The notes beneath the pieces were generated by a model, which worked only from the letters and a program-made list of their open reading frames with translations, made no database searches and was not told where the DNA came from. Shown here in pieces: positions 32,218-63,955 of a stretch of DNA of 64,000 nt. How positions within the stretch are numbered: position 1 is the stretch's first letter; each line of letters begins with the position of its first letter. Both the position numbers and the translations under genes were made by a program. Source of the DNA: Anaerolineae bacterium (GTDB taxonomy: Bacteria > Chloroflexota > Anaerolineae > B4-G1 > SLSP01). Location: the NCBI GenBank assembly GCA_049975205.1, contig JBNGDL010000013.1, positions 12,643 to 76,642 of the forward strand, in the 5' to 3' direction.

Positions 32218-32289
32218 ACCGTCATTCTACCGGGGTCATAGGCGCTGTCAACGATATCCATCGAAGGGTCCCTGTTAGGTTGTAGACTT

Positions 32290-32533: not shown

Positions 32534-32619
32534 GGCACGGAAGGCATGATGAGAGAAAAGCGCTATCATAGTTGGGTAAGATGGCTGTCGGGAGCGGATC
32601 TCGCGAAAGGAGCAGACTT

Positions 32620-40744: not shown

Positions 40745-41026
40745 CTCTGTCCTCTTTCCTGGTTGAGGTGTGACGTGTGCGGAAACTGGAGTTGGACCAC
40801 CCGCCCTGCCGGATATGAACCCTGATCCTTTTGGAAAGAAGGGGTGGGATGGCGTTTGGCGCCTCGATGATCAGATCCGTTGGAGCTATCCTATCTAGAA
40901 ACCGTCCTAATGTCAATCACGGGTGATCGAGCTTGCGGTCTCTTCAATCGGCGGTGCTCGAGCCCGAAGGGTTTCGCATCTTGCCTTTTCATCGGATGCA
41001 ACCATACTGAATCGTGGGGTGAAGCT

Positions 41027-43981: not shown

Positions 43982-45820
43982 CTAAGGCGCGGTCACTGTG
44001 ATTTTGGTCACGCTTGGGACGTATTCATAGCCCGCCAGGACCACGTCGTTCACCGTAAAGGTGATCGAAGCGGTCGTACCAGTCCTGACGTTGGTTGTGA
44101 CCGCGCACTTGCCTGATGTGTCAGTTGTGCAGGTTGCCGCACTGCCATCATCCCAAGAGCCACTCACCACTGCACCCGACAGAGCGGGATCGATCGTCGC
44201 GATGACCGTCGCCCTCCAGAAGTTCTTGTTGATCGTGGTGCTGATGTCCGCGAGGGACGCCACCGTGATCGTATCACCCGTGCCTCCGCCGCTGCTGACC
44301 GTTACTTGCTTGCTTATGTTACCGGTCGCGCCGTCATCGTCGGTAACGGTCAAGCTCACAGTGTACGTACCGTCTGCGGCGTAGGTGTGCGACGGATTCT
44401 GGGCCGTCGAGGTCGCCCCGTCTCCAAAGGCCCAGCTCCAGGAGGCGATGCTGCCATCCGAGTCCGTGCTTGCATCGGTGAAATCGACCGTGAGGTCGGA
44501 TGTAGTGTACGTGAAGTCAGCGGTTGGCGGCTGGTTGGTCTCGCCGCCCCCGCCTGCCTCGACTAGAACGGGGTTGAAGGTGCTCACATCCAGCAAGGGC
44601 TCCTGGATGCCGTCGCCCGAGTCGTCCGTCCAGTCGTAGTTCCCGGCGTTCTTGACCTGATTGTACAGATTGATGACATCCGTGGCGTTCCCTGGGTTGC
44701 TCGCGCTCGCTAGCAGCGCCAGGGCTCCCGCCGCGTGGGGGCTGGCCATCGACGTGCCGCTGATGGTGCCATACTCGCCCTCCTCCAGCGGGAAGGTGGA
44801 CAGGATGCACGCGCCGGGCGCAGCGATATCGACTGCACTGCCCCAGTTGCTGAAGTAAGCCAGCGTGTCGTCCTGATCTGTGAAACAGGTCGGGCTGCCG
44901 AGGCCACCTGGCTCACCGTCGAAGTCGGCCAGCGCGCTCACGGACAACACGTTGTCGAACCCACCGGGGCTGTAGTTGTTGGCGTCGTCGTCCTCGTTGC
45001 CCGCGGCGACCGCAAAGGCCACGCCCGCGGCGACCGCGCCCTGGATGGCGTCGTACTCGGCCTGGCTGAAGCCCTCGCCGCCCAGGCTCATATTCGCGAC
45101 TTCAATGCTGCTCGCATTGGCGGTGACGTGGTCAATCCCGGCGACGATCGCGGAGCTGGGGCAGCTGCCCGAGGCATCGCAGACCTTCACGGCCCACAGA
45201 CGAGCGCCGGGGGCGACTCCGACGACGCCAAAGTCGTTGTCCAGCGCGGCGATCGTGCCGGCCACGTGCGTGCCGTGATAATGATCGTCGTCCCCGCCGG
45301 CACCACAGCTGTATGTGCGGTTCCACGGCGCACCGGTCCCGCTGCTGATCAAACAGGTCGTGCTGCTGACGACGTTGAGGTCGGGATGGTCGAGATCGAT
45401 GCCCGTGTCGATGACGGCGACGTCCACGTCGACGCGATAGTCGTCACTCCCGTCGATATCAATGCCGCCGTTGGTGTCCGCGAAGATGCGGCTGATGCCC
45501 GTGGGCACCGTCTGGGCGCTGATCGAGCGCTCCATATCCTCCACGACGTAGGCTACGCGTGGATCACGCTGCAGGGCCGCCAGTCGCCCCGCGGGCACAA
45601 CCGCGGACATACCCTTGAGCGCGTGCTGATAGATGAAGCCCGGCTGCAAGCCGTAAGCGCGTGCCAGACCGTGCGCCTCAGCCACCGGGCTCGTCGTGTC
45701 CTTGAACACGATGATGTACGGCGCCGCCGTCGGGTCGGCTGCCATGACGGGGCCGACAGCCCCGCCCACGAGTGTTGCCAACAGCACCAAGATCGTCACC
45801 AAATTCCACTTGCTTCTCAT
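43982..45820 (-). CDS. Secreted S8 subtilisin-family protease with I9 propeptide, PKD domain and C-terminal beta domain
   Basis: Catalytic triad motifs VAVIDTGID, HGTHVAGT and GTSMASPH. PKD domain (ADFTYT...WSWAFGDG...YTVSLTVTDDDG). Signal peptide. Confidence 0.9.
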   Translation of the reverse strand: MRSKWNLVTILVLLATLVGGAVGPVMAADPTAAPYIIVFKDTTSPVAEAHGLARAYGLQPGFIYQHALKGMSAVVPAGRLAALQRDPRVAYVVEDMERSISAQTVPTGISRIFADTNGGIDIDGSDDYRVDVDVAVIDTGIDLDHPDLNVVSSTTCLISSGTGAPWNRTYSCGAGGDDDHYHGTHVAGTIAALDNDFGVVGVAPGARLWAVKVCDASGSCPSSAIVAGIDHVTANASSIEVANMSLGGEGFSQAEYDAIQGAVAAGVAFAVAAGNEDDDANNYSPGGFDNVLSVSALADFDGEPGGLGSPTCFTDQDDTLAYFSNWGSAVDIAAPGACILSTFPLEEGEYGTISGTSMASPHAAGALALLASASNPGNATDVINLYNQVKNAGNYDWTDDSGDGIQEPLLDVSTFNPVLVEAGGGGETNQPPTADFTYTTSDLTVDFTDASTDSDGSIASWSWAFGDGATSTAQNPSHTYAADGTYTVSLTVTDDDGATGNISKQVTVSSGGGTGDTITVASLADISTTINKNFWRATVIATIDPALSGAVVSGSWDDGSAATCTTDTSGKCAVTTNVRTGTTASITFTVNDVVLAGYEYVPSVTKITVTAP

Positions 45821-46000
45821 GATCTAATCCCCCCTGATTGAGTGTGAACTGCTATGCTAGACAGAGGCACTGTTTTCCATCCACGGTCGGGGCAGCGTTA
45901 TCGGTGCCTGGCCCTCCGCAGATTCACATAGTATATGCCCGTTTCTTGGTGCGTGCAAAAGCGGCGAGGGCCGAGGGCCGGGACCTCCGGTATCGGGGGA

Positions 46001-46036
46001 GCCGAGGGCACCAAGACCTTCTCAGGTGCCCTCGGC
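46001..46036 (-). terminator. Hairpin downstream of the 46088..48364 gene
   Basis: GCCGAGGGCACC-12 nt-GGTGCCCTCGGC, a 12-bp stem about 50 nt after the stop on the minus strand. Confidence 0.5.
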
Positions 46037-46087
46037 CGTGAGGGGTTTCTGCCCAAGCTGAGGGTAGCAGCCTGCTTGCTTGAGAGC

Positions 46088-48364
46088 TTAGGGCTGCGGT
46101 AGGGTTATTTGGGTGCCGTCACTGTCCCCGTCGGGGTCGGTGTTGGCTGATGAATCATACGTCATCTCGATGTGGGAGATCGCCTCGACCGTAAAGATCA
46201 CAAGGCTGACGTTTTTCTTGATGTCCTGGTTGCTGAGACTGCACGCGCCGGTTGCGTCAGTCGCGCACGAGACCGTGCCGGAGACCCCGTCGCTCCAAAC
46301 GCCGTCGACCGTGGCGTCAGGCACGGGGTTGCCGTTGGCATCGAGGACCATCACGACAACGACGGCCTCCCAGCGACTGCGGTTGGCGCTCGACGATCCA
46401 TCCAGATCGCCGATGTGCATCGTAACCCCTGGGTCAGGCGTCGGCGTAGGGCTGGGTGTTGGGGTCGGCGTGGGCGTGGGACTCGGTGTTGGCGTTGGGG
46501 TCGGGCTCGGTGTCGGCGTGGGGTCACCGCCACCGCTGTAGACCTCGAACTCGCTCAACCAATTGCGCCAGCCGTCGTGGCTCCAGGCTGTGGATTCCAG
46601 CCTCACGTAGCGCGCTGAGTATGGCCCGAAGCTGGCGGAGTCCACGCCACCATCCCCGGCGGTCGTGCTGAAGACAGGTGTCCACGCGGCCCCGTCCGGT
46701 GAGACGGCGATCGCATAGCTGGTGGCGTAGTAGTCGCCCCACGTCAGCACAACCCTGCCGACGGGCACGCTGGCCCCGAGGTCAACTGTGATCCACTCCG
46801 AGGGTAGCTTGTTCCTCCCCACCGCCTTCTCTGTCATCCAGTAGGTGACGGGATCTCCATCTACCGCCATCTCCCCGCTGTGGTCGCCGTCCTCGAAAGA
46901 GGAGGCCGTGACGGCGCTGTTCAGCGCCAGGTTGACCGTTGGGTCTGGCGTCGGTGCGTTCAGAAGCCATTCGTACGCGGCCCAGAGGTCGAGCCGACCG
47001 TACCCGAAATCGTTATCCGGTCCGACAGGTCCCAGATCGACGGCGCTGTTGAGGAGTGCGGCTTCCTGTTCAGCGATCGATGACGCCGGGAACGCGGACA
47101 GAAGAAGAGCCAGCCCGCCTGCGACGTGCGGTGCTGCGAGAGAGGTGCCCGTAGCATCGGTGTAGGATCCGTACAGATCTGTCGTATGGATGCTCACCCC
47201 AGGCGCCACCAGCTCGGGGAAAATCATCTCCATTTCCCCGCATCCTGAGGGGCCGCGGCTGCTGACCACGTAGACCTGGTCACTGTTATCTGTGGCCCCC
47301 ACCGCGAAGGCGGATGGATTGTTCGCCGGGCTGAAGCTCGTCTGCGGGTCGGGTCCGCCGTTGCCTGCGGCGAAGACCGGCAAGATGCCGGCAGCGCGCA
47401 AAGACTGAAGATCCAACTCGAACTCGAGATCACAACCGGGTGACGCCATGGTCCAGGAGTTGTTGACCGTGTGAGGGGCATCCGGTGTGGAGGGATCGCC
47501 GTCGGGATCCAGCAGCCACTGGAATCCCTGATGGATGGCTGTGGCCGTCGCTCCACCTTGATCGTCAAAGATCTTGACGGCAATCCATTCTGCGCCAGGT
47601 GCGACGCCGACGGCTGTCCCGCCTTCATTGCCGCCGACCATCACACCCATGGTCCACGTACCGTGACCGCTTAGATCTACGGGTGTATCGGGATGCTCGC
47701 CGTATGGGTCGAACCAGCTGTTTGCCCCGCCTCGCCAGCGACTGCTCAGGTCTGGGTGGCTGACGTCTACGCCGCTATCCATGTTGGCGACCACCGCTCC
47801 CTGACCCGAGATGCCCAAATCCCACAATTCGGGTGCGCCGACGACGGATAGGTTTGGTTCCGGAAGTCCGGCTGTCTGCGTGGTCGTGATTTCGATGGCG
47901 TCCGGTGTGATCTTTGCCACGTCGGCTCGCGCGGCCAATTCCTGAATCACATCTCGTGTCGCCGTCACCGCGAGGCCATTGAAGGCCCAGAAGGAAGCGA
48001 CGTGGCTGACCTTGCCTTTGGCCTGCCGGGCCGCCAATAGGGCTCTGATCTGGCGCTGAGACGCCTCCGCCTTGGCTTGCAGAGCGCGAATCACGCCCTC
48101 CTGACGGGCGGCTCGACTTGCGCCCGGTATCTCGCTCAGATCTGCCTGGTCGACAAGGGTGACGATGACGGTTGTCATCTCCCCCTCTTGCAGCGAGGCC
48201 ATCGCGGCATGCACCGAGGGGGCGATCTTGTCATCTCCCGCCTGCCCATATTGAGATGTCGGCTCGAAATCCAAGGCAGACAGTTGGGCCCCGACAGGGC
48301 CGGCGGTCAAGACAAATGACAACACCAAGAGAACCAACGGGATTCGGGCAGCTATCGTCCGCAT
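46088..48364 (-). CDS. Secreted S8 subtilisin-family protease with F5/8 type C (discoidin) domain, Pro/Thr linker and C-terminal beta domain
   Basis: Start re-set to MRTIAARIPLVLLV (AAGGAGAG RBS). This removes the apparent overlap with the upstream gene. VANMDSGVD, HGTWTMG, GTSLAAPHVAGG. Discoidin domain (AVDGDPVTYW...WITVDLG...ARYVRLE). Confidence 0.9.
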   Translation of the reverse strand: MRTIAARIPLVLLVLSFVLTAGPVGAQLSALDFEPTSQYGQAGDDKIAPSVHAAMASLQEGEMTTVIVTLVDQADLSEIPGASRAARQEGVIRALQAKAEASQRQIRALLAARQAKGKVSHVASFWAFNGLAVTATRDVIQELAARADVAKITPDAIEITTTQTAGLPEPNLSVVGAPELWDLGISGQGAVVANMDSGVDVSHPDLSSRWRGGANSWFDPYGEHPDTPVDLSGHGTWTMGVMVGGNEGGTAVGVAPGAEWIAVKIFDDQGGATATAIHQGFQWLLDPDGDPSTPDAPHTVNNSWTMASPGCDLEFELDLQSLRAAGILPVFAAGNGGPDPQTSFSPANNPSAFAVGATDNSDQVYVVSSRGPSGCGEMEMIFPELVAPGVSIHTTDLYGSYTDATGTSLAAPHVAGGLALLLSAFPASSIAEQEAALLNSAVDLGPVGPDNDFGYGRLDLWAAYEWLLNAPTPDPTVNLALNSAVTASSFEDGDHSGEMAVDGDPVTYWMTEKAVGRNKLPSEWITVDLGASVPVGRVVLTWGDYYATSYAIAVSPDGAAWTPVFSTTAGDGGVDSASFGPYSARYVRLESTAWSHDGWRNWLSEFEVYSGGGDPTPTPSPTPTPTPSPTPTPTPTPSPTPTPDPGVTMHIGDLDGSSSANRSRWEAVVVVMVLDANGNPVPDATVDGVWSDGVSGTVSCATDATGACSLSNQDIKKNVSLVIFTVEAISHIEMTYDSSANTDPDGDSDGTQITLPQP
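46436..46522 (-). repeat. Imperfect hexanucleotide repeat encoding a 29-residue (PTPTPS)n linker
   Basis: Encodes PTPTPSPTPTPTPSPTPTPTPTPSPTPTP. The plus strand shows GGCGT[CG]GG-type periodicity. Confidence 0.9.
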
Positions 48365-48380
48365 AGAGTCTCTCCTTTGC

Positions 48381-48878
48381 TCACTGCGCGACGATTGGCT
48401 CAAGCCGCACGTCGCCGAACTCTACGATCACAGGGGTGCCGGGTTGGATAAGGCCTCCGTTATTGGCGAAAAAGATGAATAAAATCCCGCCTTCTTCCCA
48501 TCGGATGCCATCGGCCAAGCCCTCGGCTCTAGGTAAGGCCTCGCCGCTCTCTGCGGCGATCAGCCTTGGCATGTTGTTCGGATCCTCCAGGAACCTGCGG
48601 GCCTTCTCCACGTTGTGGATCTTCAGACGGACATCGATCATGCCGCCTCCGGCGGTCACCCCGATCAATCGCACGCCTAGCCCGTGGCGCGCCTCCAGTT
48701 GTGCCGCGGACACAAACTGCGTCCCTCCGAGCGTCCCCTCAGCCGGCGTGGCCTTCCACACGCTGTAACCAAGGAATCCTACGGTGGCGAGCACCACGAG
48801 GACGATAAGCAGCACCGGTCTGACGCGCCGGTGAGTCGATGCTGGCATAGGTTCATAGCTAGTGATCTGTTCACTCAT
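48381..48878 (-). CDS. Single-pass membrane-anchored protein, unknown function
   Basis: TM VRPVLLIVLVVLATVGFLGYSVW, then a domain of about 120 aa. GGGAGG RBS. Its stop lies 16 nt before the next gene's start. No family recognised. Confidence 0.55.
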   Translation of the reverse strand: MSEQITSYEPMPASTHRRVRPVLLIVLVVLATVGFLGYSVWKATPAEGTLGGTQFVSAAQLEARHGLGVRLIGVTAGGGMIDVRLKIHNVEKARRFLEDPNNMPRLIAAESGEALPRAEGLADGIRWEEGGILFIFFANNGGLIQPGTPVIVEFGDVRLEPIVAQ

Positions 48879-49014
48879 ATCAAGTTACCTCCCGCACGGC
48901 GAGAGGCCATCACGTGTCGTGTGGCCCCCTGCCGTACACGCTCTGCTGACTTGGGACTGGAGGCGCAGGCGATTGAAGCACCCACGCCTCCGGTCCCAGT
49001 GAGATGGCCCCGGT

Positions 49015-52000
49015 TCACGGGCCGATGACTGTCTGCCGTCTCGACACAAAGGCATCGAAGTACAGCGTGCCCGATGCATTGCTGGTCAGGCCGTCGGAGG
49101 GTCCTAGATGGACCGCTTCCAACAGGTAGGCGCTGGTGTCCAGCCCTGTCAGCGTCTCCACCGACGTGCCACTGTCGATGTAGAGGCTGAAGGATGCGTT
49201 TGCCCCCGAGGCCCAGTCGATCTCGATCCAGTGTGGCGTGGTGGGATCGATGGTATACCAGGCGGTGTTGGTGAACGCACCACCTGACAGTGCTGAGGCA
49301 CGTATCTGGTAGGTGCCGCCGGCCTGGTTCTGACGCCGGTACTGCACCCGGAAGATCGTGGTGTTCACCGCGTCCACGCCGGCGAAGATCGTGTATGCTT
49401 GATTCTGGCCGGTCAGGGCGCTGTTGGCGTTGAAGTAGAAACGGGCGTGGTAGCTCGGCTCTTGAGCGGGCGTGAGGTCCGTGACGTAGCCCGGCGTGAT
49501 GCCGGCCATGACCGCTTCCATCCCAAATCCATCGCCATCGATTGCTGCTGTGGCAGCCGCGCTCACAGGACCTACTGCACCGCCGTTCCAGGTCGTGAGG
49601 TCGCCGGACGCGAAGCTATCGGCGAAGATGTCGTCAGGAGGCACCACGGCGAGCACGACGCTTTGCGCAGCGCTCCAGTTCCCCGCGGCGTCCTGCGCCC
49701 GCACATAGAGCGTATGATCGCCGGCGCTGAATCCGCTCATGTCGATCGACGCTGTCAGGCCCTCCGTCATGCTATCGAAGGCGCCATCCGTGGCAGCCAT
49801 CGGGATGCCATTGCTCATGCCGGGATCAACGCCTGCATACCACTCCGCCTTGACGATGATCGCGTCGGCGTCGGTGGCGTTCGCCGTCAGCGCTACGGTG
49901 CTCGCGCCATCCGTCGGGTTGGGGTCAGCAACGACGTTACTGACCGTCGGTGAGGTTTTGTCGATCACCAGGTCCGTGGCTGTGGCTGTGCCCCAGTTGC
50001 CCGAGGCGTCCTGACCGTGGACCCAGATCTGATGCGTACCTTCCGCAAGTTGGTTGATGGTCGAGAGCGGGATGTAGGCATACGCCGCTTCCAGCAGCTC
50101 GTCGAACAATCCATCACCTGGTGTCAGTGGGAAGCCGGTGCCATCCGTGCCGACGGTATCGATGAAGCCCTCGACTCGTGAGAGCGTGGAGGCTGTATCG
50201 CTGAGGGTGGCATCCACTCTCACGGCGTACCGAGTTGGGTTGTAGGGAAGGGCGCCGTTGTTGGGGTTGGGGGTCGCCGTGACGTCGCTTGCCGTCGGCC
50301 CTGTCACATCCACGACCAACGTGGTCGTGACGTAATCCCCCCACCATCCAAAGGCATCCATGCTGTGGACGTAGACGGTGTGTTCTCCTTCTGAGAGTGT
50401 GCCCATCGTTGCCGCGTCGATGCTGCCCTCGAGTCCCGCGATCGGTGCTGTGACGTTGGTGGTCAACGGTAGGCCGTCGCCATTGATCCCGGTGGCATCG
50501 ATGAAGTATTCGGCGGCGGCGATGTCGCTGTTGCCGGTAGCCGAGTCATCGCCGGTAGCGGTGATCAGCACCTCCGCGCTACCGTCGCTTGGGTTGGGTG
50601 CAAGGGAGACATCGCTGGTCGCGGGCCCCAGCTTGTCGAGATGGAGCACGCTGAAGTTGAACGCGCCCCAGTTGCCCAGGGCGTCTTGCCCGTGCACGTA
50701 GATGGTGTGATCGCCAGACGGCCAGTTGGCCAACGAGGCTGTGGAGATGGCTACGCTCACATCCTCCGTTGGTGAATCGAAGGCGCCATCGGCGGCAACC
50801 AACTGTATGCCCGTCCCAGGAACGCCCGCTGTGTTGGTGAAGTACTCAGCGGCTTGGATGTTGGCGCCTCCAGTGGCGGCATCGCTTACCGTCGCGCTTA
50901 GGCTCACGTCTACCGAGCCGTCTGCGGGGTTGGGCGCCAGCGCCATCGCGCTGGTCGTCGGCCCGGCGATGTCATCCGTTGGGACGCCATCCGTGACGGT
51001 GATGAAGGTCAGCATCCCGCCAAAGCCTGCCGCTCCATTGTTGTGCAGCAGCATACTGGTGTCATAGAGGGCGTAGCGGGTGTCGCCGACCGTGCCTGCT
51101 TCTGCGGGCACCGTGACCAAGCGATCACTCGTCTGGCCCGATCCGACCGTGGCGGATGCTACCTCATACGGGTAGGAGAGCGGGCTCCCGTCCACCGCTA
51201 TTACCTTCTGATGCATCCCGAGCACGCCTAGCGAGTGTTGCACGATCCCGGCGTTGACGATGCGCAGCAAAATCGTGTTGCCGGCCATGCTGAGGATCTC
51301 ATCCGTCTGCGGATAGGCCTTCCCGTTGATCAGGAAGTACTTCGGTGCGTAATCCCGCATGTCGAAGGCGGCAGGATCCGCGCTGTTGTTCAGCGCAGGA
51401 TCGATCTCGCTGAGTACCAACAACTCCTCATCGACGAAGGTGGTGGCCGCGTCGGTGTACGCCTGGTTGATGGCGGCCGCGGGCCGCACGACCAGAGCGC
51501 CGAAGAGGCCCATCGCCACCTGATGCTGAGCGTTGGGTAGCAAGCCGGCCTCATAGAGGTAAGTGCCGGGGTTGCTGGCGGTGAAGCTGTAGGTCTTGGT
51601 GCCGCCGGGAGCCACGCCTGTCAAGTCCGGCATCATCGCCTGACCTGGGAAGACCAGCGCGGTGTTGTCCGCAAGGTCGTTGTGCAGAACCACTTGGACG
51701 GTCTCGCCCTGGTGGGCGATCAGGGCCGGTCCGGGAAGCGAGGGGGCCCCGCCAACTGTACTTGCGTAACCCCAGATCGTCACCGTGGCCCCGTCTGGCA
51801 AGTTGAGCGAACCGGTGGTTGCCCAGACCTCGCAGGTGCGGGTGTTGGTACCTCCATCATAGGTGCAGGTACTATCGGGTAGGGTGGCCGCTCGGACTGC
51901 GCTGGCGGGCGCCTCGGGTGGTGCAGCCAGGGTCAGAAACACCTGACTCAGGCTGACAACTGCGAGCGCCACGACCAGCAGGATTGGGACGCTGATGCTA

Positions 52001-52026: not shown

Positions 52027-52066
52027 AGCTAACTCCTAGATTCGTATCGTGTCCACAGATGGCCAC

Positions 52067-53392: not shown

Positions 53393-53426
53393 TTTCTGAC
53401 TCCTTTTTGTTACGTGTGGGTCCAGC

Positions 53427-54770: not shown

Positions 54771-54845
54771 TGGTATTTCTCCTTAGCTAATCTCGGGGTT
54801 GGGGATCGGCCATCGGACCGATCCCCAACCCATCGTGTCGATAGT

Positions 54846-57800
54846 CTAGGGCGCTACCACTACTTCGTCGGCGCCCGCGTCGTAGAGATTTCCCTGCGGA
54901 CGGAGATCGCCGTCGATGTCGTCCGCGGGGGCGCTGATACCGTCCTTCGCCATCGCGCCGAGGTCAATCGCGGGTGAGCCAGTCTGTAGATGGAAGTCAC
55001 CCAGCCGATCCACTCGGGTCTCCACTGCGACGATCAGGGCATCGACGAAGTTGGGGTTGCCGCGCCAGGGCATTGCCTGCACGCTGACGTCGAACTCCTC
55101 GAGGACTATCGGATCGCTGCCCACGATGTTAGAGGTGTCGAGAATGGTGCCCGTGGCGACCTGAAGTAGCGAGTTGGTCGGTGCCAGCAAACCCGTGCCA
55201 TCAGCCACGCCTAGGTCCCAGTGGTAGATGGGCGTCAGGTCCCCGGGCTGGCCGATGCCGGCGATGCCGCCGCCGGTCCACGTGCCGGCCCTGTTGTCCC
55301 AGAAGATGTTGTTGAACAGCAGAGGGGAACTGAAGATGGGCGATCCCACCGGCAGGGTGGCCTGCAGAAGCGCGCTGTTGCGCGAGCTGGACAGGCCGGC
55401 CGGAGCGGGTTGCCCGTTGCTGGTCACGGCTGTGGCCGTCGTAACGTTCTTCATCACGGTGTTGTTGTAGAAGCGAACATCTGGTGCGTCGTTGAGCGAC
55501 ACGCCGCCTCCCTCGTGAGTCGAGATGTTGTTGATGATGATGTTGTTGTAGACGTTGTAGGGGAAGTCCCCGGCCATCAGGAAGCGCAGGCCGCCACCAT
55601 CGTCATTGCCCAGATTGGCCTGGATCAGGTTGGCGTAGACGTCCACGGGGCCTGCACCAGGCGAGAGGGTGGCCGGATCGGCCGGCAGTTCGCCGGCGAT
55701 CATGAGGCCGCCGCCCTCGTCGTAGGCGCGGTTGAAGGTAATCCGATTGTGATGGATCGCGCCATTGGGGCTGAGTCCGTAGTGGCTGATGCCCCCACCG
55801 TACTCGGCCGAGAAGTTGCCGCAGATGTCGTTGTAGGCAATCTCGTATCCCTCGGACCCAGAGAACAGACCGATGGCACCCGCCAAGTTCGTGCCGGCGT
55901 TCGCCAGGATACGGTTGTGCGCGATGCGTACGAAGTCGTTCTGGTTGTCGTTGAGCGCGCCCGGTAGGTGCGGCGTGCCCAGGCGAATCGCGCCTGCATA
56001 GGCACCGCCGTTGCTTTGCAGGATGTTGTTCGTGATCTGCAGATAGCGCGCGTAACCGTTGGCGAAGATGCCGCCGCCCTGCACAGCTTGGGCCTCTTTC
56101 AGGGCCGGATCGACGGTTAGGTTGTTAGGGAAGCCCTGTTGATCGCCACCCTGGATCGTGAAGCCGTCGATGCCGGAGGGGCGGCTGGTGCTGAAGTCGC
56201 CATCTTCGGCCAGGATGTAGACCACGGGGCCCTCATAGATGGCCTGGTTGCCGTCCCAGTTCAGGCTTGCCACGAGGGTGCGCCACGCTTCAGCGTAATC
56301 GGTATCGCCTGCCACGCCGCGCCCGTCGATGATGGAGCCGAGGACAGCTTCGTTGGTGTCCGTGTAGACGCCGCCCGGCCCAACACCTTGGAGCATAACC
56401 GGCTCGTACATCACCACGTTCTCATAGTAGACGCCCAGGGGGTTCCACTGAGCGGGTGTGTCGGGGTAGACCACCACGAGCGCCTCGCGATTACTGTTAC
56501 CTCGGGACGCCCTGTCCACACCGGCCTGGATCGTAGGATAATCCCGACCGGGGCCGACCTCGACGACGAGTGGGTTGTAGCCCTGTCCGATGATGTGGAA
56601 GGTCAGACCGTTGACCGTGCTCGCACCAGCTGCATTCGTGATAGCGAGTTGATAACGACCCGCCGCGGTCCCTGCAGGCACCTCCACGTCGATCTGTTGA
56701 TCGGTCCAGTTCAGAATCGTCAGCGGGAGATCTCCAAGCGTGACCTGGCCTTGTACCTCACCGAAGCCGAGGCCCTGGATCGTGAAGATCCCGCTGCTGT
56801 TGCCCCTCAGTTCGAGGTACGGTTGAGAGACGGCGAACAGCTGTGGTTTGGTCGGATCGACGCTGCAATCCGGTGGCGCCTGTTGCGTCGTCGAGGGGTT
56901 CAGCACCCCCGGAACCATCCGCGTGGGCGCTAAGTCAGAAGGCACCATGAGGCCAGACCAGATCTCAAACGTGGCCCCGATCGTGCGGTATTGTGGGTTG
57001 TAGTTCGGGTTGAGCTGTCCAGGCTGCCCGGGGTCGTTGCCCAGCATATAGTACATGCTGGCGCAGACGCCTGAAGGAGAGGGGCAGTTGACTGTGTGCG
57101 TTGAGGGCAAAAGCACCTCGAACGTACCGTTGAAGTCGGAGGTCACCGTGGTAACCAACCGATTGTTGAAGTCATAGATGCCAATGGCGGCATCGGGTAG
57201 GCCGGCCTTCTCCCCGAAGTAGAGACTGCGCTTGTCGGTGGACAGCGTCAGGTCGGAGATAATGTATCCCTTCCACTTTCCGGGGATTGGGACCTCGGTG
57301 AAGAGGGTGAAGGCAGGCGCAATTGACTTGCCGTTGTTCAAGGTGACGAGCTTGGTATCGCAGAGCGGCTTCTCCATACCCTCAAAGGGGCTGCCGCCCT
57401 CAGCCGCGAAGCTGGGGTTCTCGACAGCGTTCGGGCCATCGACGCCGACGCCCGCGACGTCCACCGTGTGAAGCGAACCGGCGCAAGCCGACGGTGGCAC
57501 CGCAGGCTCGTACTGATCGCCACCGAAGACGTTGACGTCCTCCTCGCGCACTACCTGGTACATGGGCCGCCCCAGGGCATCCTCAGGGATGACCACCTCG
57601 ACGAGGTAGTCGCCCGCCGGGATGTCTACCGGCGATGCCAGAGGGGCACCGGTGACCGGATCGGTCACGATCTCAGTGAAGCCCCAGTTTCCGTCCAGGG
57701 TGGCAAAGCCAGACTGGAACTGCGTGCCCATGACGGGGCCCTCCAAACAGCGGTAACCATCGAGATTGTCTGCATCGGGACCATATGGTGGCAGGACTTC

Positions 57801-59810
57801 CTGAACTCCGTCAGGACCAAAGGTCAGGGGATTGCCGTTGGCATCCCGCGCGGTACAGTTCTTGGGCTGCTCCCAGATCTCGGTCTCGGTCTGGTTGAGC
57901 AGGAAACCCTTCTTCAGGGCGCCATCCGCCTCGATCTCGAACTGGCCCGTAGGGTCACATTCCGCACCGGCATTGGTCCCACAGGGCACGGTGGCGTAGA
58001 GGTTCATCGTCAGGCCAGGGATGCCGGGTGACCAGGGCTCAACGGCCTGATAGCGCGGATCATACTCGTTGCGGGTGACGTCGTAGAAGACGGAGCCCAC
58101 GATACCGCCGTTGGTACCGGCCTCGTAGGCGTGAACGCCCCAGTCAAGGCGACCGGGTTGGCCTAGGATGGGCAGGAATCCAACGTCCACCCCATCGCCC
58201 AACACCGTGGTCGGCTCAGGTTGATTGTCGACCTGGTAGGTGATGCCGGTGGTGTAGTAGCGGTCGTTGTAGGCCTCGAGGACCATCCACGAGCCCATAG
58301 GGTAGGCTCTCTCAAAGACGTAGTATCCGGTCGGGTCGGTCGTGGCGGCCACCGTCATGCGGTCGATCTCGCTGTTGTCTCGATCTCGCAGGACGATTGG
58401 GTAGTTCGCCAGGCCGGGCTCACCTGCGTCCTTCTTTCCGTTCTTGTTCAGGTCGTTGAAGACGTAGCCTTCGACCTGTGTGAACCAGCCGGTGAGCATC
58501 TGGGTGCCCATGTCGTAGACTTGGCCATCGGAGACGGTGATTTGGGTCCAGTCGAGGATATAGTGCAGTTTCTCGTCCCACCAGGTGAAGAGGTAGTTGC
58601 CGTCGGGCACGCCCGGAATGTAGAAGGTGCCATCAGGATTGGCCGGGCCGACATATACGGCTGTGTCGCCAGCCTGCAAGTCGGAGAGGGCCACCCAGGC
58701 GTCCTCAATGGGCCCGGTGACCTTGGCACCATTTAGGCCACCCCAGGTGCCGCCCTGGTAGGGTAGGGCGTTCTGCTGGGGTAGATAGACTGAAGCTGCT
58801 GCGATGGTGCCGGAGACGCCTCCGGTGCCGCCCGCCAGGGTGTTCATCGGCTTGGTGAAGCCGAACCAGGTCCACGGGAAAGGTTCGGCGCCGACGACGA
58901 ACTCGTTATCCAGGCCGGTGCCGCCCTCAGCTAGCCAAGTATCGAAGCTCCACGAGCCCTCCAACGTCGTGGTGTGGAGCCAGCCTTCGCCGGCCGGCGG
59001 GGCCACTTCGACGTCATAGCGGTTGGGGCCCAGGTTGGGGATGACGATGTCACCGTTTGCGTCGCTGTAGAGGCAGTCGGTGGTTCCCGTCCCAGGGATG
59101 GGATCTCCGTTGGCGTCGTATTCGGTGCAGAGCGGATTCCCGAAGACGTCCGTGGTGATGTCCCCCGCGGGATCCTTGACAATCGCCATGAAACCGTCCA
59201 GGCCACCCTCAGCCGGGGCGTCATATTGGCCATTGACCGGCGAGATGTCTTCGAAGACTTTGATCCGCATCGTGGCGCCGGGCAGCGGATGGGGCTGTAG
59301 CTCGACCGTTACCGGTCCCTCGAGCGGGACGCTGAAGTGGGCGCCGCCCATCTTGTAGTCCTCTGCCAACACGGAGATGAGGTACTTGCCCGGCGGCAGA
59401 TCGATGCCGGTGCCCAGCACCCCGTTGAAGTCATCTTGATCGCCCTGGGCGTAGATCGGCGCCGCGCCTGGGACCTCCCGAATTGAGGGCCAGTCGCAGC
59501 TATCGGGGTAGTTCGGATCCCTGGTTACGCCATCTTCCAGGTAGGGCGAACACCCGGCCTCGTAGGGTTGGGTGGGGTTGCCCGTGTTGTCGACGTTGAT
59601 AAGGTACTTGTACTCGTTCACGGGGTCACCCTTGAGCACCGCGCCGCCGGGATGGTCCGGTTCGTCGCGGGCACTGACCACGCTCAGGCTCAGCGTGTTG
59701 GTCGCTTGGGCCTCGGCATTCGGCACGTTGGCCCCAATGGCCGGAAGGACGACCATCAGCAGCAGCGCCAGACGAAAGGCAAGCGATAGGATAGATCTCT
59801 TACGTGTCAT
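54846..59810 (-). CDS. Giant (1654 aa) secreted surface protein: Cna-B/SdrD-B-like and carboxypeptidase-regulatory-like domains, IPT/TIG-like domain, right-handed parallel beta-helix
   Basis: Signal peptide ending AEAQA. SdrD-B motif GYVFNDLNKNGKKDAGEPGLANYPIVLRD...TDPTGYYVF. IPT-like segment (IQGLGFG...QIDVEVPAGTAAGRYQL). PbH1-type repeats (NNIIINNISTHEGGGVSL, NRILANAGTNLAGAIGL). C-terminal DIDGDLRPQGNLYDAGADE. Confidence 0.85.
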   Translation of the reverse strand: MTRKRSILSLAFRLALLLMVVLPAIGANVPNAEAQATNTLSLSVVSARDEPDHPGGAVLKGDPVNEYKYLINVDNTGNPTQPYEAGCSPYLEDGVTRDPNYPDSCDWPSIREVPGAAPIYAQGDQDDFNGVLGTGIDLPPGKYLISVLAEDYKMGGAHFSVPLEGPVTVELQPHPLPGATMRIKVFEDISPVNGQYDAPAEGGLDGFMAIVKDPAGDITTDVFGNPLCTEYDANGDPIPGTGTTDCLYSDANGDIVIPNLGPNRYDVEVAPPAGEGWLHTTTLEGSWSFDTWLAEGGTGLDNEFVVGAEPFPWTWFGFTKPMNTLAGGTGGVSGTIAAASVYLPQQNALPYQGGTWGGLNGAKVTGPIEDAWVALSDLQAGDTAVYVGPANPDGTFYIPGVPDGNYLFTWWDEKLHYILDWTQITVSDGQVYDMGTQMLTGWFTQVEGYVFNDLNKNGKKDAGEPGLANYPIVLRDRDNSEIDRMTVAATTDPTGYYVFERAYPMGSWMVLEAYNDRYYTTGITYQVDNQPEPTTVLGDGVDVGFLPILGQPGRLDWGVHAYEAGTNGGIVGSVFYDVTRNEYDPRYQAVEPWSPGIPGLTMNLYATVPCGTNAGAECDPTGQFEIEADGALKKGFLLNQTETEIWEQPKNCTARDANGNPLTFGPDGVQEVLPPYGPDADNLDGYRCLEGPVMGTQFQSGFATLDGNWGFTEIVTDPVTGAPLASPVDIPAGDYLVEVVIPEDALGRPMYQVVREEDVNVFGGDQYEPAVPPSACAGSLHTVDVAGVGVDGPNAVENPSFAAEGGSPFEGMEKPLCDTKLVTLNNGKSIAPAFTLFTEVPIPGKWKGYIISDLTLSTDKRSLYFGEKAGLPDAAIGIYDFNNRLVTTVTSDFNGTFEVLLPSTHTVNCPSPSGVCASMYYMLGNDPGQPGQLNPNYNPQYRTIGATFEIWSGLMVPSDLAPTRMVPGVLNPSTTQQAPPDCSVDPTKPQLFAVSQPYLELRGNSSGIFTIQGLGFGEVQGQVTLGDLPLTILNWTDQQIDVEVPAGTAAGRYQLAITNAAGASTVNGLTFHIIGQGYNPLVVEVGPGRDYPTIQAGVDRASRGNSNREALVVVYPDTPAQWNPLGVYYENVVMYEPVMLQGVGPGGVYTDTNEAVLGSIIDGRGVAGDTDYAEAWRTLVASLNWDGNQAIYEGPVVYILAEDGDFSTSRPSGIDGFTIQGGDQQGFPNNLTVDPALKEAQAVQGGGIFANGYARYLQITNNILQSNGGAYAGAIRLGTPHLPGALNDNQNDFVRIAHNRILANAGTNLAGAIGLFSGSEGYEIAYNDICGNFSAEYGGGISHYGLSPNGAIHHNRITFNRAYDEGGGLMIAGELPADPATLSPGAGPVDVYANLIQANLGNDDGGGLRFLMAGDFPYNVYNNIIINNISTHEGGGVSLNDAPDVRFYNNTVMKNVTTATAVTSNGQPAPAGLSSSRNSALLQATLPVGSPIFSSPLLFNNIFWDNRAGTWTGGGIAGIGQPGDLTPIYHWDLGVADGTGLLAPTNSLLQVATGTILDTSNIVGSDPIVLEEFDVSVQAMPWRGNPNFVDALIVAVETRVDRLGDFHLQTGSPAIDLGAMAKDGISAPADDIDGDLRPQGNLYDAGADEVVVAP

Positions 59811-59904
59811 CTTGACCTCCTAATAGTTTTTCTCGATCATTAGATGGGTGAGTCTCGAAGGTAGGTTTCGCATTTTCACCTCCCAGGAAACCCCAGGATC
59901 CTTG

Positions 59905-60285
59905 TCAGGGTTGTGGACCTTGAGCGATCTTGATGTGTGTCAGCCGACGTAGTTCGGCCAGCAGTTGCTCTGGCCCCTCGGCTTTGGAGAGAAAGCCATC
60001 GGCGCCGGCGGCCAAGGCAGCCTCCTCAGTCTCAGGCCGCCAGCTCAGAACAATGATTCGAGCTGGCAGCTCCAGCGCACGCAGCGCGGACAGCAGTTTG
60101 CCTGCCGGCCAGCCCCTCAACTCCCATTCGAGTAATATCAAGTCCGGCTTGAGCGCCAACGCTTCGGACAACAGGGTGTTGGCTCCTGAGACCTCACCGA
60201 CGATGCTCAGTTCGGGCTCCTCGGCGAGGAACATTCGCAGAGCGTGTCGTACCTTCGGATGGCCATCGGCCAACAACACACGCAT
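59905..60285 (-). CDS. Stand-alone receiver (REC) domain protein, NarL-type, with Glu at the phospho-acceptor position
   Basis: MRVLLADGHP...KPDLILLEWELRG aligns with [12 protein letters not shown] of the 63311 regulator. The acceptor Asp is replaced by Glu53 (codon 60127..60129). There is no output domain. Confidence 0.8.
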   Translation of the reverse strand: MRVLLADGHPKVRHALRMFLAEEPELSIVGEVSGANTLLSEALALKPDLILLEWELRGWPAGKLLSALRALELPARIIVLSWRPETEEAALAAGADGFLSKAEGPEQLLAELRRLTHIKIAQGPQP

Positions 60286-60807
60286 TCGGCGTTTCCTTTC
60301 GACATGCCATAGCCTAGCGCCGGTCGAGGAGCGGCACCCTCACGCTGTCCCGCCTCCCACAACCCTTCTTTCACACGGTCTTAGAGTAAGACAGCGACGC
60401 CTTGAGCACAACGGGCAAAGGGATAGATCGCAGGTCTAGTTAGCCCCTAGACGAAAGGATAGGCCCGGACGCAGCGGCAAGAAGGTCCCCCGTCAACTCC
60501 AAGCGTCAGCAAACCAAAATCAATCGTGTTCCCAACCTAGGTCATCAGCAGACACGCCAAAGCCCTGATAGACTTGAAGGGCAGACAGGCCAAGCGTTAG
60601 CCATCCTGCCGCAGGGAGCACCTTAGGTGATCGACATCAGACTGGGGGCGGATACTTGCTAAGCTGCTTGGAAGGCATTAGGATATGGGTGCACCCCGGA
60701 AGTTGGAGCCACAAGCGAGCTAATCTGACGAAGGGATCCTGGACCATCCGCAAACTCTCTTGGCACTGAAGCCCTCGCAGGGAAAACTGGTGGAGGAGGA
60801 CGAGTAA

Positions 60808-63261
60808 GTGACGCACGCGAAAGCGGAATCGGAGAGAGACGTTCAAGACAAACAAGCGACGCGTCTAGAGGATCACAGCGTCTCTGGAGACCGCCTCATA
60901 GGGTCTGTGTTTGAAGCGCCGGTGGACGCGATCGAACGCAGACCTGTGGAAGACCGCCATCTAGTCTCGGCTCTCCTCAATACCGTGGGGGCGATGGTCG
61001 TCGTACTCGACAGGCAGGGACGTATCATTCTCTTTAACCGAGCGTGCGAGCGCATCACCGACTATTCGGTGGAAGAGGTGGTCGGTAGACGTGTATGGGA
61101 TCTGTTTCTGCTACCCGAAGAGGTGCCAGCGGTTAAAGCTGTCTTCGAGCGACTTCTAAGTGGCGAGTTTCCCCAGGAACACGAGAATCGTTGGGTGACC
61201 AAGGCGGGCGACCGCCGCCTGATTGCCTGGTCGAACACCTCCCTTCATGATGCTGAAGGCGAGGTCGCCTACGTGGTTGGTACCGGCATTGATATCACGG
61301 AGCGTCGGCAAGGGGAGCAGGAGATTGAGAGGCTAGCTAGGTTCCCCAGTGAGAACCCGAACCCCGTTTTGCGAGTCTCAGAGAGTGGTATCCTCCTCTA
61401 TGCCAACCGAGCGAGCTCATCCTTGTTGGATCACTGGGGGTGTCGAGTAGGCTATCCGCTGCCTGACCACTGCCAGGCGTCCGCCTCTGAAGCTCTGCGC
61501 ACCGGATCACGTCAAGACGTTGAAGTGGCGGTGGGGGATCGTGCTCTTGTTCTGGCCTTCGCGCCGGTGGTCGAGCATGGTTACGTGAATGTCTATGGGC
61601 TAGATATCACCGACCGGAAACGCGCGCAGGAGCAGATTCGGCAGCAGAACGAGTTCCTGAGCTCGATCTTGGAATCTGTGACGCACCCCTTATATGTGGT
61701 GAATGTCGCCGATCACACCATCCAGATGGCGAACAGCGCTGCCTATGCCGGTGACTTGCCAGACGGGGCAACGTGTTATCAGCTTTTTCACGGTCTGAGT
61801 GTCCCTTGCTCAGAGGCTGGCTATGCCTGCCCGCTCGAGGAGATCCGAAGAACCAAGGAATCTGTCACTGCCGAGCATGTTCACAGGGAAGATGACGGCT
61901 CCTTGAGGAACGTGGAGGTGCACGGGTATCCTCTCTTGGACGATAGAGGTGAGGTGACCGCGGTGATCGAGTATTGCCTCGACATCACCGAGCGCAAGCA
62001 GATGGAGACAGCGCTGCGTGTAGCCAAAGATGCCGCCGAAGTCGCCCGGCTTGAGGAGCAGCAACGACGTCAGGAGGCGGAGAGGCGCCGCCAGATCGCT
62101 GAGAGCCTCACCGATGTGCTGGCTGCTCTCAACTCCAATCAACCTCTGGAGCGAATCCTGGATGCGATCGCGGAGCAGGCCAGTCAGTTGCTCGAGACCG
62201 AGGGGGTGGCTATCTGCCGGCTTGATAGAGAGCAGAATGCTCTCGTCGTCGAGGCAACTCGCTGTCTGTCGCACTATCTTTACCGCGGCAGCGATTCCCC
62301 TCCGGGTGGCGAGGTGCTGTTGGAGGCGGTGGCGCGCCGCGAACCAGCGGTGGTGTCGGATCTGACCATGGACCAGCCCGCGGAGGCGCCGGTGGGGGAG
62401 GCGTCTGGCGCGGTGGATGAATGTGACGCATATCCGTTCAGGGCCGTGCTCGCCACGCCCGTTGTCGTACAGGATGAGGTCTATGGCGGGATTCTGCTCT
62501 ATCACCGGCACCCGCGTTCGTTCGACGCTCAAGAGATCGAGCTGGCTGCTGTCTTCAGTGATCAGGTCGCCCTCGCCGTGGAGAATGCGAGATTGAGAGA
62601 GCAGATCCAGGAGGCGGCCACAACCGCGGAACGACATCGTCTGGCTCGCGATCTGCACGACTCAGTGACCCAAGCGCTTTTCTCAGCCAGCCTGGTGGCT
62701 GAGACCTTGTCACGCGTATGGGACCGGGATCCAGGGGAGGCGAAGCAGGGTCTCGAAGAGCTTCGCGATCTTACGCGTGGCGCGCTAGCCGAGATGCGGA
62801 CCCTGCTCGTCGAGCTCCGTCCCTCTGCTTTGCTGGAAGCGAAGTTGGATGACCTGCTCCTACAGCTGTCCAAGGCGGTTACCAGTAGGGCTCAGTTGCC
62901 TGTTGTGACGGAGATTGCGCCCAGCCCGGCTTTGCCGCCGGATGTTCAGGTCACGTTCTATCGTGTCGCTCAAGAGGCGCTCAACAACGCCGTCAAGCAT
63001 GCAGGAGCCAAGCGTCTGACAGTCAGTTTGCAGGTGGCCCCTCCGTTATCCGGTCAGCGGGGAGACGGTTGGCAGGGTCAGCTGGTGTTGTGTGTTAGCG
63101 ACGACGGCAAGGGCTTTGAGGTAGATCGGATACCCCCAGCCCATCTTGGGTTGGGCATTATGCGCGAGCGGGCCGAAGCCATTGGGGCGCGTCTGAGCGT
63201 TGAGAGTCGAGTTCATAAGGGGACGGACGTGACCCTCGTCTGGGAAGGGAGGCAGCCGTGA
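60808..63261 (+). CDS. Cytoplasmic multi-PAS/GAF sensor histidine kinase (HisKA_3/NarL-type)
   Basis: GTG start with a GGAGGAGG RBS. Three PAS-like modules, one with ENPNPV and one with CY..H....PC......CP. GAF domain. H-box LARDLHDSVTQ. DDGKGF and GLGIMRERA. Confidence 0.9.
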   Translation: MTHAKAESERDVQDKQATRLEDHSVSGDRLIGSVFEAPVDAIERRPVEDRHLVSALLNTVGAMVVVLDRQGRIILFNRACERITDYSVEEVVGRRVWDLFLLPEEVPAVKAVFERLLSGEFPQEHENRWVTKAGDRRLIAWSNTSLHDAEGEVAYVVGTGIDITERRQGEQEIERLARFPSENPNPVLRVSESGILLYANRASSSLLDHWGCRVGYPLPDHCQASASEALRTGSRQDVEVAVGDRALVLAFAPVVEHGYVNVYGLDITDRKRAQEQIRQQNEFLSSILESVTHPLYVVNVADHTIQMANSAAYAGDLPDGATCYQLFHGLSVPCSEAGYACPLEEIRRTKESVTAEHVHREDDGSLRNVEVHGYPLLDDRGEVTAVIEYCLDITERKQMETALRVAKDAAEVARLEEQQRRQEAERRRQIAESLTDVLAALNSNQPLERILDAIAEQASQLLETEGVAICRLDREQNALVVEATRCLSHYLYRGSDSPPGGEVLLEAVARREPAVVSDLTMDQPAEAPVGEASGAVDECDAYPFRAVLATPVVVQDEVYGGILLYHRHPRSFDAQEIELAAVFSDQVALAVENARLREQIQEAATTAERHRLARDLHDSVTQALFSASLVAETLSRVWDRDPGEAKQGLEELRDLTRGALAEMRTLLVELRPSALLEAKLDDLLLQLSKAVTSRAQLPVVTEIAPSPALPPDVQVTFYRVAQEALNNAVKHAGAKRLTVSLQVAPPLSGQRGDGWQGQLVLCVSDDGKGFEVDRIPPAHLGLGIMRERAEAIGARLSVESRVHKGTDVTLVWEGRQP

Positions 63262-63310
63262 CGCTTGGTCGACCGTGGTCCTTGAAGATGTGCCGAGATA
63301 GGAGGATCTA

Positions 63311-63955
63311 GTGGCTGGAACAGGTCCGATTCGCGTTCTCATTGTTGATGACCATGCCATGCTGCGTAGGGGATTGAAGTTCTTCCTACGGGGTTTTGAC
63401 GACCTTGAACTGGTGGGCGAAGCGGCTTCCGCGGAGGAGGCGATAAGGCTGTGTGCCGAGATCGAACCGGATGTGGTTTTGATGGATATGGTCTTACCCG
63501 GGATCGATGGGGCTGAGGCTACTCGGATGATTCGCAGTCGGTTGCCCGCTGTCCAGGTCATTGCGCTGACCAGCTTTCAGGAGGAGGATTTGGTCGAGAG
63601 GGCGCTGCAGGCGGGCGCCATCGGCTACCTGCTAAAGAACGTAGAGGCGGATGATCTAGCTGCCGCTATTCGGGCGGCCCATCATGGTCGGTCGACTCTG
63701 GCGCCGGAGGCTACCGAGATCCTGATCCAGGCCACGCGCGAGCGGGCAGACCAACCGCACTACGATCTCACAGAGCGGGAGGCCGAGGTTCTGGATCTGA
63801 TGGCTGAGGGGCTTTCGAATGCCGAGATTGCCGAACGGTTGGTGATCAGCGTCGCCACGGTCAAGTTCCACGTGAGCGGCATCCTCTCAAAGCTGGGGGT
63901 TGACAGCCGGACGGAGGCCGTGAGCCTGGCATGGCGGGAGCACCTCGTCTCCTAA
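63311..63955 (+). CDS. NarL/LuxR-family response regulator
   Basis: Receiver domain ([19 protein letters not shown]) plus LuxR HTH ([36 protein letters not shown]). GTG start with an AGGAGGA RBS. Confidence 0.9.

Follow-up and report, generated by a model that had tools for sequence, protein, structure and literature searches.

Two-domain multicopper oxidases (MCOs) form trimers in which the trinuclear copper cluster sits where domain 1 of a subunit meets domain 2 of the adjacent one, and an evolutionary route from such trimers to six-domain oxidases such as ceruloplasmin has been proposed. In the type C members of this group, exemplified by the enzyme of Nitrosomonas europaea (Protein Data Bank (PDB) 3G5W) and the metagenomic mgLAC (2ZWN), one polypeptide carries all 12 ligands and each trimer holds three identical sites. 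Every MCO known to us builds its complete catalytic centre from one gene product. Here we describe a locus that may depart from this pattern, found in a 64,000-nucleotide stretch of an Anaerolineae bacterium (contig JBNGDL010000013.1; the whole stretch is called the window below). A cassette of six genes at positions 46088–59810 encodes a giant secreted protein (the giant), three MCO-type proteins (MCO1, MCO2 and MCO3), a small membrane-anchored protein and an I9/S8 protease. Judging from the sequences, we consider it reasonably probable that this cassette is a widespread extracytoplasmic oxidase module, at the core of which three paralogous cupredoxin proteins of two domains each would form an obligate hetero-oligomer.

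MCO1 (447 amino acids (aa); 53427–54770, minus strand) has two cupredoxin domains and a twin-arginine translocation (Tat) signal, whose arginines R12 and R13 are at least 95% conserved in its orthologues. Domain 1 contains a full type-1 (T1) copper site (H151, C197, H204 and M209) together with four trinuclear-cluster histidines (H154, H156, H196 and H198). Like 2ZWN, MCO1 thus bears its T1 site and HxH/HCH pairs in domain 1, in motifs of the same spacing (HTxHxHG and HCHx5Hx4M), and all eight ligands are invariant among 81 genome and 60 metagenome orthologues; domain 2 has no HxH. MCO2 (441 aa; 52067–53392, minus strand) is a two-cupredoxin paralogue with a Sec signal and four conserved cysteines. 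Its domain 1 is free of ligands and it has no T1 site, while domain 2 carries H307/H309 (FHPHG) and H411/H413 (SH(I/N)H), four histidines that are kept in 96–100% of 75 genome orthologues and in 79/79 metagenome orthologues. MCO3 (1003 aa; 49015–52026, minus strand) has a signal or anchor, a cupredoxin pair at residues ~65–345 in which no copper ligand is conserved among 62 orthologues, and Ig-like repeats at 346–800; a repeat alignment resolves four tandem repeats of ~110 aa and a C-terminal domain of ~200 aa, so that the four repeats noted in an earlier sequence-only reading of this DNA are real, as is the C-terminal domain. Two further histidines in domain 2 of MCO1, H258 and H263 (EAHWxxSH), lie outside the canonical MCO motifs and are found in 80/81 and 81/81 genome orthologues and in 59/60 and 60/60 metagenome orthologues, respectively; in a divergent branch (loci L085 and L086, described below) a histidine aligns by eye at the first position only. 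These residues might bind an additional metal or a substrate, or might belong to an interface.

The three proteins are closer to one another than to any MCO of solved structure. The Pfam families Cu-oxidase_3, Cu-oxidase and Cu-oxidase_2 and the PDB entries 2ZWN, 3G5W and 4KNS match all three, and the type C two-domain enzymes 2ZWN and 3G5W are the best PDB relatives of MCO1, aligning with it by way of HTxHxHG and HCH. Profile–profile alignments (hhalign) within the trio extend over both domains at E values of 6e-41, 3e-37 (MCO3 against MCO1) and 9e-79 (MCO3 against MCO2), whereas the matches of the trio to any solved MCO are far weaker (1e-9 to 1e-12). In the hhalign alignments each ligand motif faces non-ligand residues in the other two proteins. 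In the match of MCO1 to 2ZWN, the domain-2 'MHSHGH' of the latter aligns with 'NMTLSG' of MCO1, a stretch that hhalign sets against 'MHPHSK' of MCO2. Measured against the type C enzymes, two cupredoxin domains are present in all three proteins and a T1 site in MCO1 only, and none of the polypeptides contains the eight trinuclear-cluster histidines, a set that is complete only over MCO1 and MCO2 together.

Because MCO1 lacks the domain-2 HxH pairs and MCO2 the domain-1 histidines, neither alone would be expected to form a trinuclear centre. The two supply four histidines each, and it would be difficult to account for purifying selection on each half in several phyla without joint use. The ligand sets are exactly complementary, which points to one active site common to a heteromer, and MCO1, MCO2 and MCO3 are mutual paralogues that most likely divide a single catalytic centre. 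The sequence-only reading had listed a ligand-bearing, a half-site and a ligand-free MCO as separate items; these three kinds are real, but the supposedly ligand-bearing MCO1 is itself half of a trinuclear site, and the exact complementarity had been missed.

The same genes occur together well beyond this genome. A scan of species-representative genomes with MCO1 confirmed relatives in at least 445 of them and returned 80 loci for synteny analysis, and confirmed relatives were found on at least 529 metagenome contigs. These belong to Chloroflexota and Actinomycetota of soil, sludge, groundwater and marine habitats. A metagenomic protein collection holds more than 5,600 relatives of MCO1, the best 120 of which are 61–89% identical and bear generic names only. 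Three of these relatives have contexts of identical order, namely the giant, MCO1, MCO2, a long MCO3, a small open reading frame (ORF) and an S8 gene. Counting only loci with enough flank, the neighbours of MCO1 include the giant, directly upstream, in 76/76, MCO2 in 76/78, MCO3 in 71/71, the small protein in 59/61 and the I9/S8 protease in 48/57, the last as an orthologue of the I9 and S8 part with variable C-terminal modules. In the reciprocal test from MCO2, on independent metagenome contigs, MCO1 precedes it in 50/50, MCO3 follows it in 41/41, and the giant stands directly before MCO1 in 35/35.

The cassette order is the same in Chloroflexota (Anaerolineae, Caldilineaceae, Ardenticatenaceae and Promineifilaceae), in Actinomycetota (Nocardioides, Cryobacterium, Xylanimonas, Actinotalea and Marmoricola) and in some Proteobacteria/Myxococcota (a few loci in Anaeromyxobacteraceae or 'delta', Burkholderiales and Sphingomonadaceae). 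At least three phyla thus share the six genes in a single order, and the carriers include both monoderm and diderm lineages. The best relatives of the cluster agree with a Chloroflexota origin of the window. No Pfam or NCBIfam model is specific to any of the six proteins, none of the window's proteins scores above the cut-off of a specific curated family, and the source annotations are generic. The earlier proposal of a 20-kb functional unit made of eight genes and a two-component system does not hold, as the conserved unit consists of the giant, MCO1, MCO2, MCO3, the small anchored protein and the I9/S8 protease (46088–59810). Conservation of gene order elsewhere, the lack of which the earlier reading had named as grounds for refuting it, is decisively borne out in both search directions. 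This conservation across phyla supports well a co-functioning extracytoplasmic oxidase module, and the idea of an extracellular oxidative machine survives in that form, but for six genes only. These observations show that the cassette is a real entity present in hundreds of bacterial genomes of several phyla; in the split-oxidase reading it would have spread horizontally.

Natural gene fusions bring two of the three proteins into one chain. An exhaustive search with MCO2 yielded 211 representatives at E < 1e-30, and among the top matches are two MCO2~MCO3 fusions, P0333 (1156 aa) and P0335 (884 aa), in which an MCO2 part with intact HxH pairs is joined to an MCO3-like, ligand-free cupredoxin pair. 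The gene order at the fusion loci is MCO1-like gene, fusion, small protein, CopC–CopD and S8-like gene, and the MCO1-like proteins retain their ligands (HTVHWHG and HCH...H...M). At L086 a giant-like gene (34% identity) lies upstream, and the gene in which the L085 contig starts is too short for scoring. Two of the three subunits have thus become fused in a divergent branch of the cassette, and this fusion argues for a physical association.

The main functional rival to these proposals is a copper resistance or homeostasis island, in which a cuprous oxidase like CopA, PcoA or CueO would act with CopC/CopD and the giant would be incidental or a sink that binds copper at the surface. In Actinomycetota a CopC–CopD fusion gene (~620 aa) separates the small-protein gene from the S8 protease gene within the cassette at 18–22 of 32 loci (for example, L033:16251–18122; CopC–CopD genes are also present at L003, L009, L011, L025, L076, L083, L085 and L086), and some Chloroflexota have one downstream of or near the cassette. 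The NCBIfam model copper_res_A also matches all three MCOs weakly. However, the window's own cassette has no CopC–CopD copy, and copper_res_A (TIGR01480) scores only 31–46 bits against a cut-off of 479 bits. The MCOs are without Met-rich segments, the giant has few conserved His, Met or Cys residues beyond its apparent Cys pairs, and the flanking regulators are of the NarL/HisKA_3 type with cytoplasmic PAS/GAF sensors, not of the CopRS, CusRS or CueR types. CopCD/YcnJ-type proteins, moreover, also serve copper uptake for the maturation of cuproenzymes. Weakened in this way, the copper explanation is improbable as an account of function; it concerns the substrate and is compatible with a heteromer.

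Less probable again is the view that the three paralogues act independently, with MCO1 self-sufficient (for example, as a homotrimer whose copper site is reduced or in some way unusual) and MCO2 and MCO3 dead binding or structural proteins. The restriction of the Tat signal and the T1 site to MCO1 would fit such a division, and cupredoxin domains without ligands often serve as structural modules. Yet a homotrimer of MCO1 could not build a trinuclear cluster, since its domain 2 offers no HxH pair at all, and the ligand distribution argues against a functional MCO1 homotrimer. The histidines of MCO2 stand in canonical motifs (FHPHG and SHNH) conserved at the levels given above and with no T1 site beside them, a pattern that makes little sense unless they pair with MCO1. 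The strict co-occurrence in both search directions and the existence of MCO2~MCO3 fusions further count against independent roles.

The giant (1654 aa; 54846–59810, minus strand) opens the cassette. It has a signal peptide and Pfam/NCBIfam matches to CarboxypepD_reg, SdrD_B, TIG and choice-of-anchor-Q. Its beta-sandwich domains of the prealbumin/Cna-B-like type (CarboxypepD_reg, and SdrD_B with the Ca-binding motif DxNxNG) are accompanied by a central region at ~545–1000, a TIG domain and a choice-of-anchor-Q C-terminus. Between residues ~1100 and 1600 stacked [DE][DE]GGG rungs follow one another (AEYGGG, YDEGGG, NDDGGG and THEGGG in succession at 1300–1500), and this part is a probable right-handed beta-helix. 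Pfam Beta_helix (PF13229) matches the giant at E 5e-3 with 17 bits against a gathering score of 25.9 and its orthologues at the same position with up to 23 bits (E down to 6e-5), still below threshold, and NosD (PF05048) reaches E 0.24–0.48 in this region. Of the earlier description as a 1654-aa beta-helix protein, the length, the recurrent Beta_helix matches and the visible rungs stand, but every one of the matches is sub-threshold.

A profile search with the giant against PDB sequences returned the SdrD B domain as its sole match, and the giant shares this single SdrD_B domain with SdrD-type adhesins; it is not a member of the MSCRAMM/SdrD family (NF012181/NF000535; 15–20 bits against cut-offs of 1700–2500), and no LPXTG motif is seen on reading its C-terminus. 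Across phyla the giant is 50–78% identical over its full length, with a peak at residues 1300–1500. Adhesins are not usually so constrained, and the giant may therefore have a fixed partner or a fixed activity. Orthologues of the giant, which bear generic source names, add SLH, DUF11 or PKD modules, consistent with surface display. In 11 Chloroflexota loci a second secreted beta-helix protein follows the cassette (L076:16448–19228; L001:18841–20865), with a choice-of-anchor-Q-like C-terminal motif and sometimes DUF11; the window is without it. That the locus instead serves a surface layer, sheath or adhesin, with the giant as main product and the cupredoxins and proteases non-catalytic or accessory, is the least probable of the alternatives: the giant's adhesin-like modules (SdrD_B, TIG, prealbumin-like, beta-helix and choice-of-anchor Q), the anchors added in its orthologues and the Ig-repeat tail of MCO3 speak for it, but twelve copper ligands are invariant or near-invariant across phyla, the full-length identity of the giant between phyla is atypical of fast-evolving adhesins and S-layer proteins, and the cassette is found in monoderm as well as diderm lineages.

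The two remaining cassette genes encode a small protein and a protease. The former (165 aa; 48381–48878, minus strand) has an N-terminal transmembrane (TM) helix and an Ig-like beta-sandwich, predicted as such by AlphaFold2 (AF2) with a pLDDT of 81. It has no Pfam or NCBIfam match, its homologues are all named 'hypothetical', and no His, Cys or Met is conserved in the family. The Cu(I) chaperone 3ZK0 appeared at rank 16 of its structural matches (probability 0.41) and was discounted for this lack of conserved residues. The I9/S8 protease (46088–48364, minus strand) comprises a signal peptide, an I9 propeptide, an S8 domain, an F5/8-type-C (discoidin) domain, a Pro/Thr-rich linker and a Big_1-like C-terminal domain. 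With matches to Peptidase_S8 (E 2e-47) and Inhibitor_I9 (E 1.5e-4) it is a subtilase with I9, and its triad D209/H247/S421 lies in the motifs DSG, HGT and GTSLA (numbered from TTG 48403; subtract 13 for the preferred ATG 48364).

A second S8 protease, with a PKD domain and an intact D/H/S triad (43982–45820, minus strand), is separated from the cassette by a gap of 267 nucleotides (nt). The discoidin and PKD modules of the two S8 proteases agree with what had been read from the sequence, and both triads are intact. In related loci the PKD protease finds only cross-matches to the other S8 gene (23–35% identity), with no orthologue. Both S8 proteases appear to have in common a C-terminal Big_1-like Ig domain of ~100 aa while their middle modules differ (PKD and discoidin), and both C-termini match the same stretch of locus L061 (4077–4421).

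For the oxidase module as we read it, the packing of domain 1 against a neighbour's domain 2 in two-domain MCO trimers suggests a ring of MCO1, MCO2 and MCO3 with six cupredoxin domains in a 1:1:1 (αβγ) ratio. A single T1/trinuclear centre would lie at the interface of MCO1 domain 1 and MCO2 domain 2, a ceruloplasmin-type layout in unfused form, and the ligand-free but ever-present MCO3 would fill the third position of the six-domain ring. MCO1 would be exported folded by Tat, MCO2 and MCO3 by Sec, and the interface cluster would be metallated outside the membrane, plausibly with the help of CopC–CopD where the cassette carries it. The Ig-repeat tail of MCO3, the giant or both could hold the complex at the cell surface, with the small TM protein as a putative assembly or anchoring factor and the S8 protease as a candidate maturase. 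More speculatively, electrons from the substrate would enter at the T1 site of MCO1 and reduce O2 to water at the common cluster.

As for the substrate, we lean weakly and speculatively towards a metal cation (Fe2+, Mn2+ or Cu+), because six-domain, single-cluster layouts are those of metallo-oxidases and because MCO1 has a conserved acidic loop beside its T1 histidine (HCH-V-E-D-V-E-H; E200 in 59/60, D201 in 54/60 with Glu in the other six, and E203 in 60/60). Oxidative cross-linking of the giant or the envelope is a still more doubtful candidate, and phenolic or polymeric organics and any other substrate are, on equal terms, less likely yet. The roles named in the earlier reading (oxidation of Mn, Fe, Cu or phenolics, cross-linking of a sheath, and maturation by the proteases) are likewise guesses.

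Several points weigh against this model of a surface-held hetero-oligomeric oxidase. Domain 2 of MCO2, taken alone, has no sequence relative in the PDB, and its histidines are assigned by motifs and transitive alignment; when the MCO2 profile was aligned to PDB sequences, domain 1 aligned well and the domain-2 histidines were not placed. The stoichiometry, a 1:1:1 ring as opposed to another assembly, is our deduction, and the assembly of an interface cluster from a Tat-exported MCO1 and Sec-exported partners would be non-trivial. The preference for a metal substrate comes from a single acidic loop and from the example set by six-domain MCOs. A Foldseek comparison of the small protein with the PDB gave nothing significant and no recognisable function. 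The sub-threshold scores of the giant's beta-helix belong here too, as does the AF2 model of its residues 545–1005, which with a 30-sequence alignment reached a pLDDT of 46 and was judged unusable.

Around the cassette, the gene structure agrees with the sequence-only reading at most points. The ORF list of the window contains all ten ORFs at the coordinates first proposed, including the eight co-directional minus-strand genes running from 60285 down to 43982, and a GGAGG- or AGGAG-type motif 5–12 nt upstream of every one of the ten bears out the claim that each gene has its own Shine–Dalgarno sequence. Placing the start of the discoidin protease at ATG 48364, which is preceded by the motif AAGGAGAG, yields the short gaps between 59810 and 46088 as first stated (75, 34, 40, 136 and 16 nt); the start chosen by the ORF lister, TTG 48403, has no such motif. 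The claim that every product carries a Sec or Tat signal or an anchor applies to seven of the eight genes, the exception being the stand-alone receiver. Sec-type N-termini were read from the sequence for MCO2, MCO3, the giant and both proteases, and the giant and MCO2 have conserved Cys pairs, as would suit extracytoplasmic proteins. A search with Rfam over 43000–64000 gave no match, and promoter and terminator scans gave only chance-level results.

The receiver (59905–60285, minus strand) is cytoplasmic, with neither signal nor anchor, and is atypical, as had been noted, in that a Glu stands where the phospho-acceptor Asp of the neighbouring regulator aligns. A separate receiver gene was seen only at L001, the closest relative seen, and does not generally accompany the cassette. 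On the opposite strand a PAS/GAF/HisKA_3 kinase (60808–63261, plus strand) and a NarL/GerE regulator (63311–63955, plus strand), both assigned with Pfam/NCBIfam, are transcribed divergently across an intergenic region of 522 nt, close to the roughly 520 nt described earlier. The HisKA_3/NarL pair stands beside the cassette in 25–30 of 42 Chloroflexota loci (the regulator in 30/42), while the regulator occurs in 0/32 and the kinase in 1/32 Actinomycetota loci. Three components are thus lineage-specific, namely the lone receiver, the protease with PKD and the NarL-type pair, the last being largely a feature of Chloroflexota. Within the intergenic region (60499–60606), two copies of GCAGACAsGCCAA lie at a distance of 33 nt and two of CCAAGCGTyAGC at a distance of 91 nt. 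These short direct repeats are possible regulator sites that are indistinguishable from chance two-copy matches.

The cassette is flanked in the window by unrelated genes, for a dynamin-like GTPase and a 2-thiouracil desulfurase. Neither the dynamin-family GTPase (40880–42763, plus strand) nor a protein of 572 aa bearing a ricin-type beta-trefoil lectin domain (39026–40744, minus strand), both just outside the cassette, recurs in related loci. Further away, the plus strand at 30559–34023 encodes a MerR-type regulator with a B12-binding domain and, beginning ~0.9 kb after it, a DNA photolyase, and a full-length bacterial serpin (Pfam Serpin, E 1.5e-121) is encoded at 7326–8645 (minus strand). 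A radical SAM/SPASM enzyme (5133–6632, minus strand) is near two large ORFs (643–2505 and 2456–3748) without Pfam match, and the region 643–6632 (minus strand) may be a peptide-modification cluster.

In the literature searched we found no three-gene heteromeric two-domain MCO, no description of the cassette and no family in which one T1/trinuclear site is split over two paralogues with a ligand-free third, in agreement with the earlier statement that the architecture matches no described system. The chemistry of MCOs is known; what appears to be without precedent is a split-site, multi-gene architecture in a widespread cassette. If confirmed, the trio would illustrate in living bacteria the step of duplication and subfunctionalisation on the way to six-domain oxidases. 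The substrate, be it a metal cation mineralised away from the cell or the protein of the envelope, would then mark out a new redox function outside the cell in Chloroflexota and Actinomycetota. The presence of the cassette in the cultured genera Nocardioides, Cryobacterium, Xylanimonas and Actinotalea makes the hypothesis directly testable.

Described oxidase systems each resemble the cassette in part. CopA and PcoA are single-chain, three-domain, Met-rich enzymes. The MCOs of the cassette have two cupredoxin domains and score about tenfold below the CopA/PcoA cut-off, and they are not NirK proteins either (TIGR02376; 25–55 bits against 296), MCO1 having the trinuclear-type HxHxH and HCH motifs. 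Like many cassettes, the copABCD and pcoABCD operons combine a Tat-exported MCO with CopC/CopD, but they include no giant protein, S8 protease or paralogue trio. In the Mnx system MnxG is a complete six-domain MCO with the small non-MCO partners MnxE/F. Iodide oxidase requires IoxA and IoxC at the least, the genes for which lie in a cluster of six ORFs that also has copper-handling genes of the SCO1/SenC type, and IoxA has all four copper-binding regions in itself, unlike the split MCO1 and MCO2. Neither iodide oxidase nor Mnx divides a single catalytic site between subunits, in contrast to the arrangement proposed here.

Non-identical subunits, as in our model, are known from Nmar_1354 of Nitrosopumilus maritimus, an αααʹ two-domain MCO trimer with an extra pendant domain, whose structure (PDB 9CCK) is one of the best matches that MCO2 finds in the PDB. 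This 'heterotrimer', however, stems from a single gene, the product of which either has or lacks a dangling cupredoxin unit; a fragmentation pattern on SDS-PAGE is reported for it, and every subunit has the full ligands. Compared with type C trimers, the cassette has its ligands split over two genes and none on the third paralogue, which would allow at most one site per assembly. The ring proposed here would resemble ceruloplasmin, hephaestin and MnxG in having six cupredoxin domains and a single trinuclear cluster, with a sequence similarity to ceruloplasmin that is marginal (E 5e-3). Ceruloplasmin-type six-domain MCOs are metallo-oxidases; they and MnxG are single chains with several T1 sites, whereas the cassette would use three chains (2+4 domains when fused) and one T1 site. 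Set between these two groups, the trio may, as we tentatively suggest, be an obligate αβγ two-domain MCO and a living intermediate on the way from homotrimeric two-domain to single-chain six-domain enzymes, which together with its partner of 1,650–2,500 aa, itself highly conserved between phyla, would make up a new, horizontally spread cell-surface oxidase machine.

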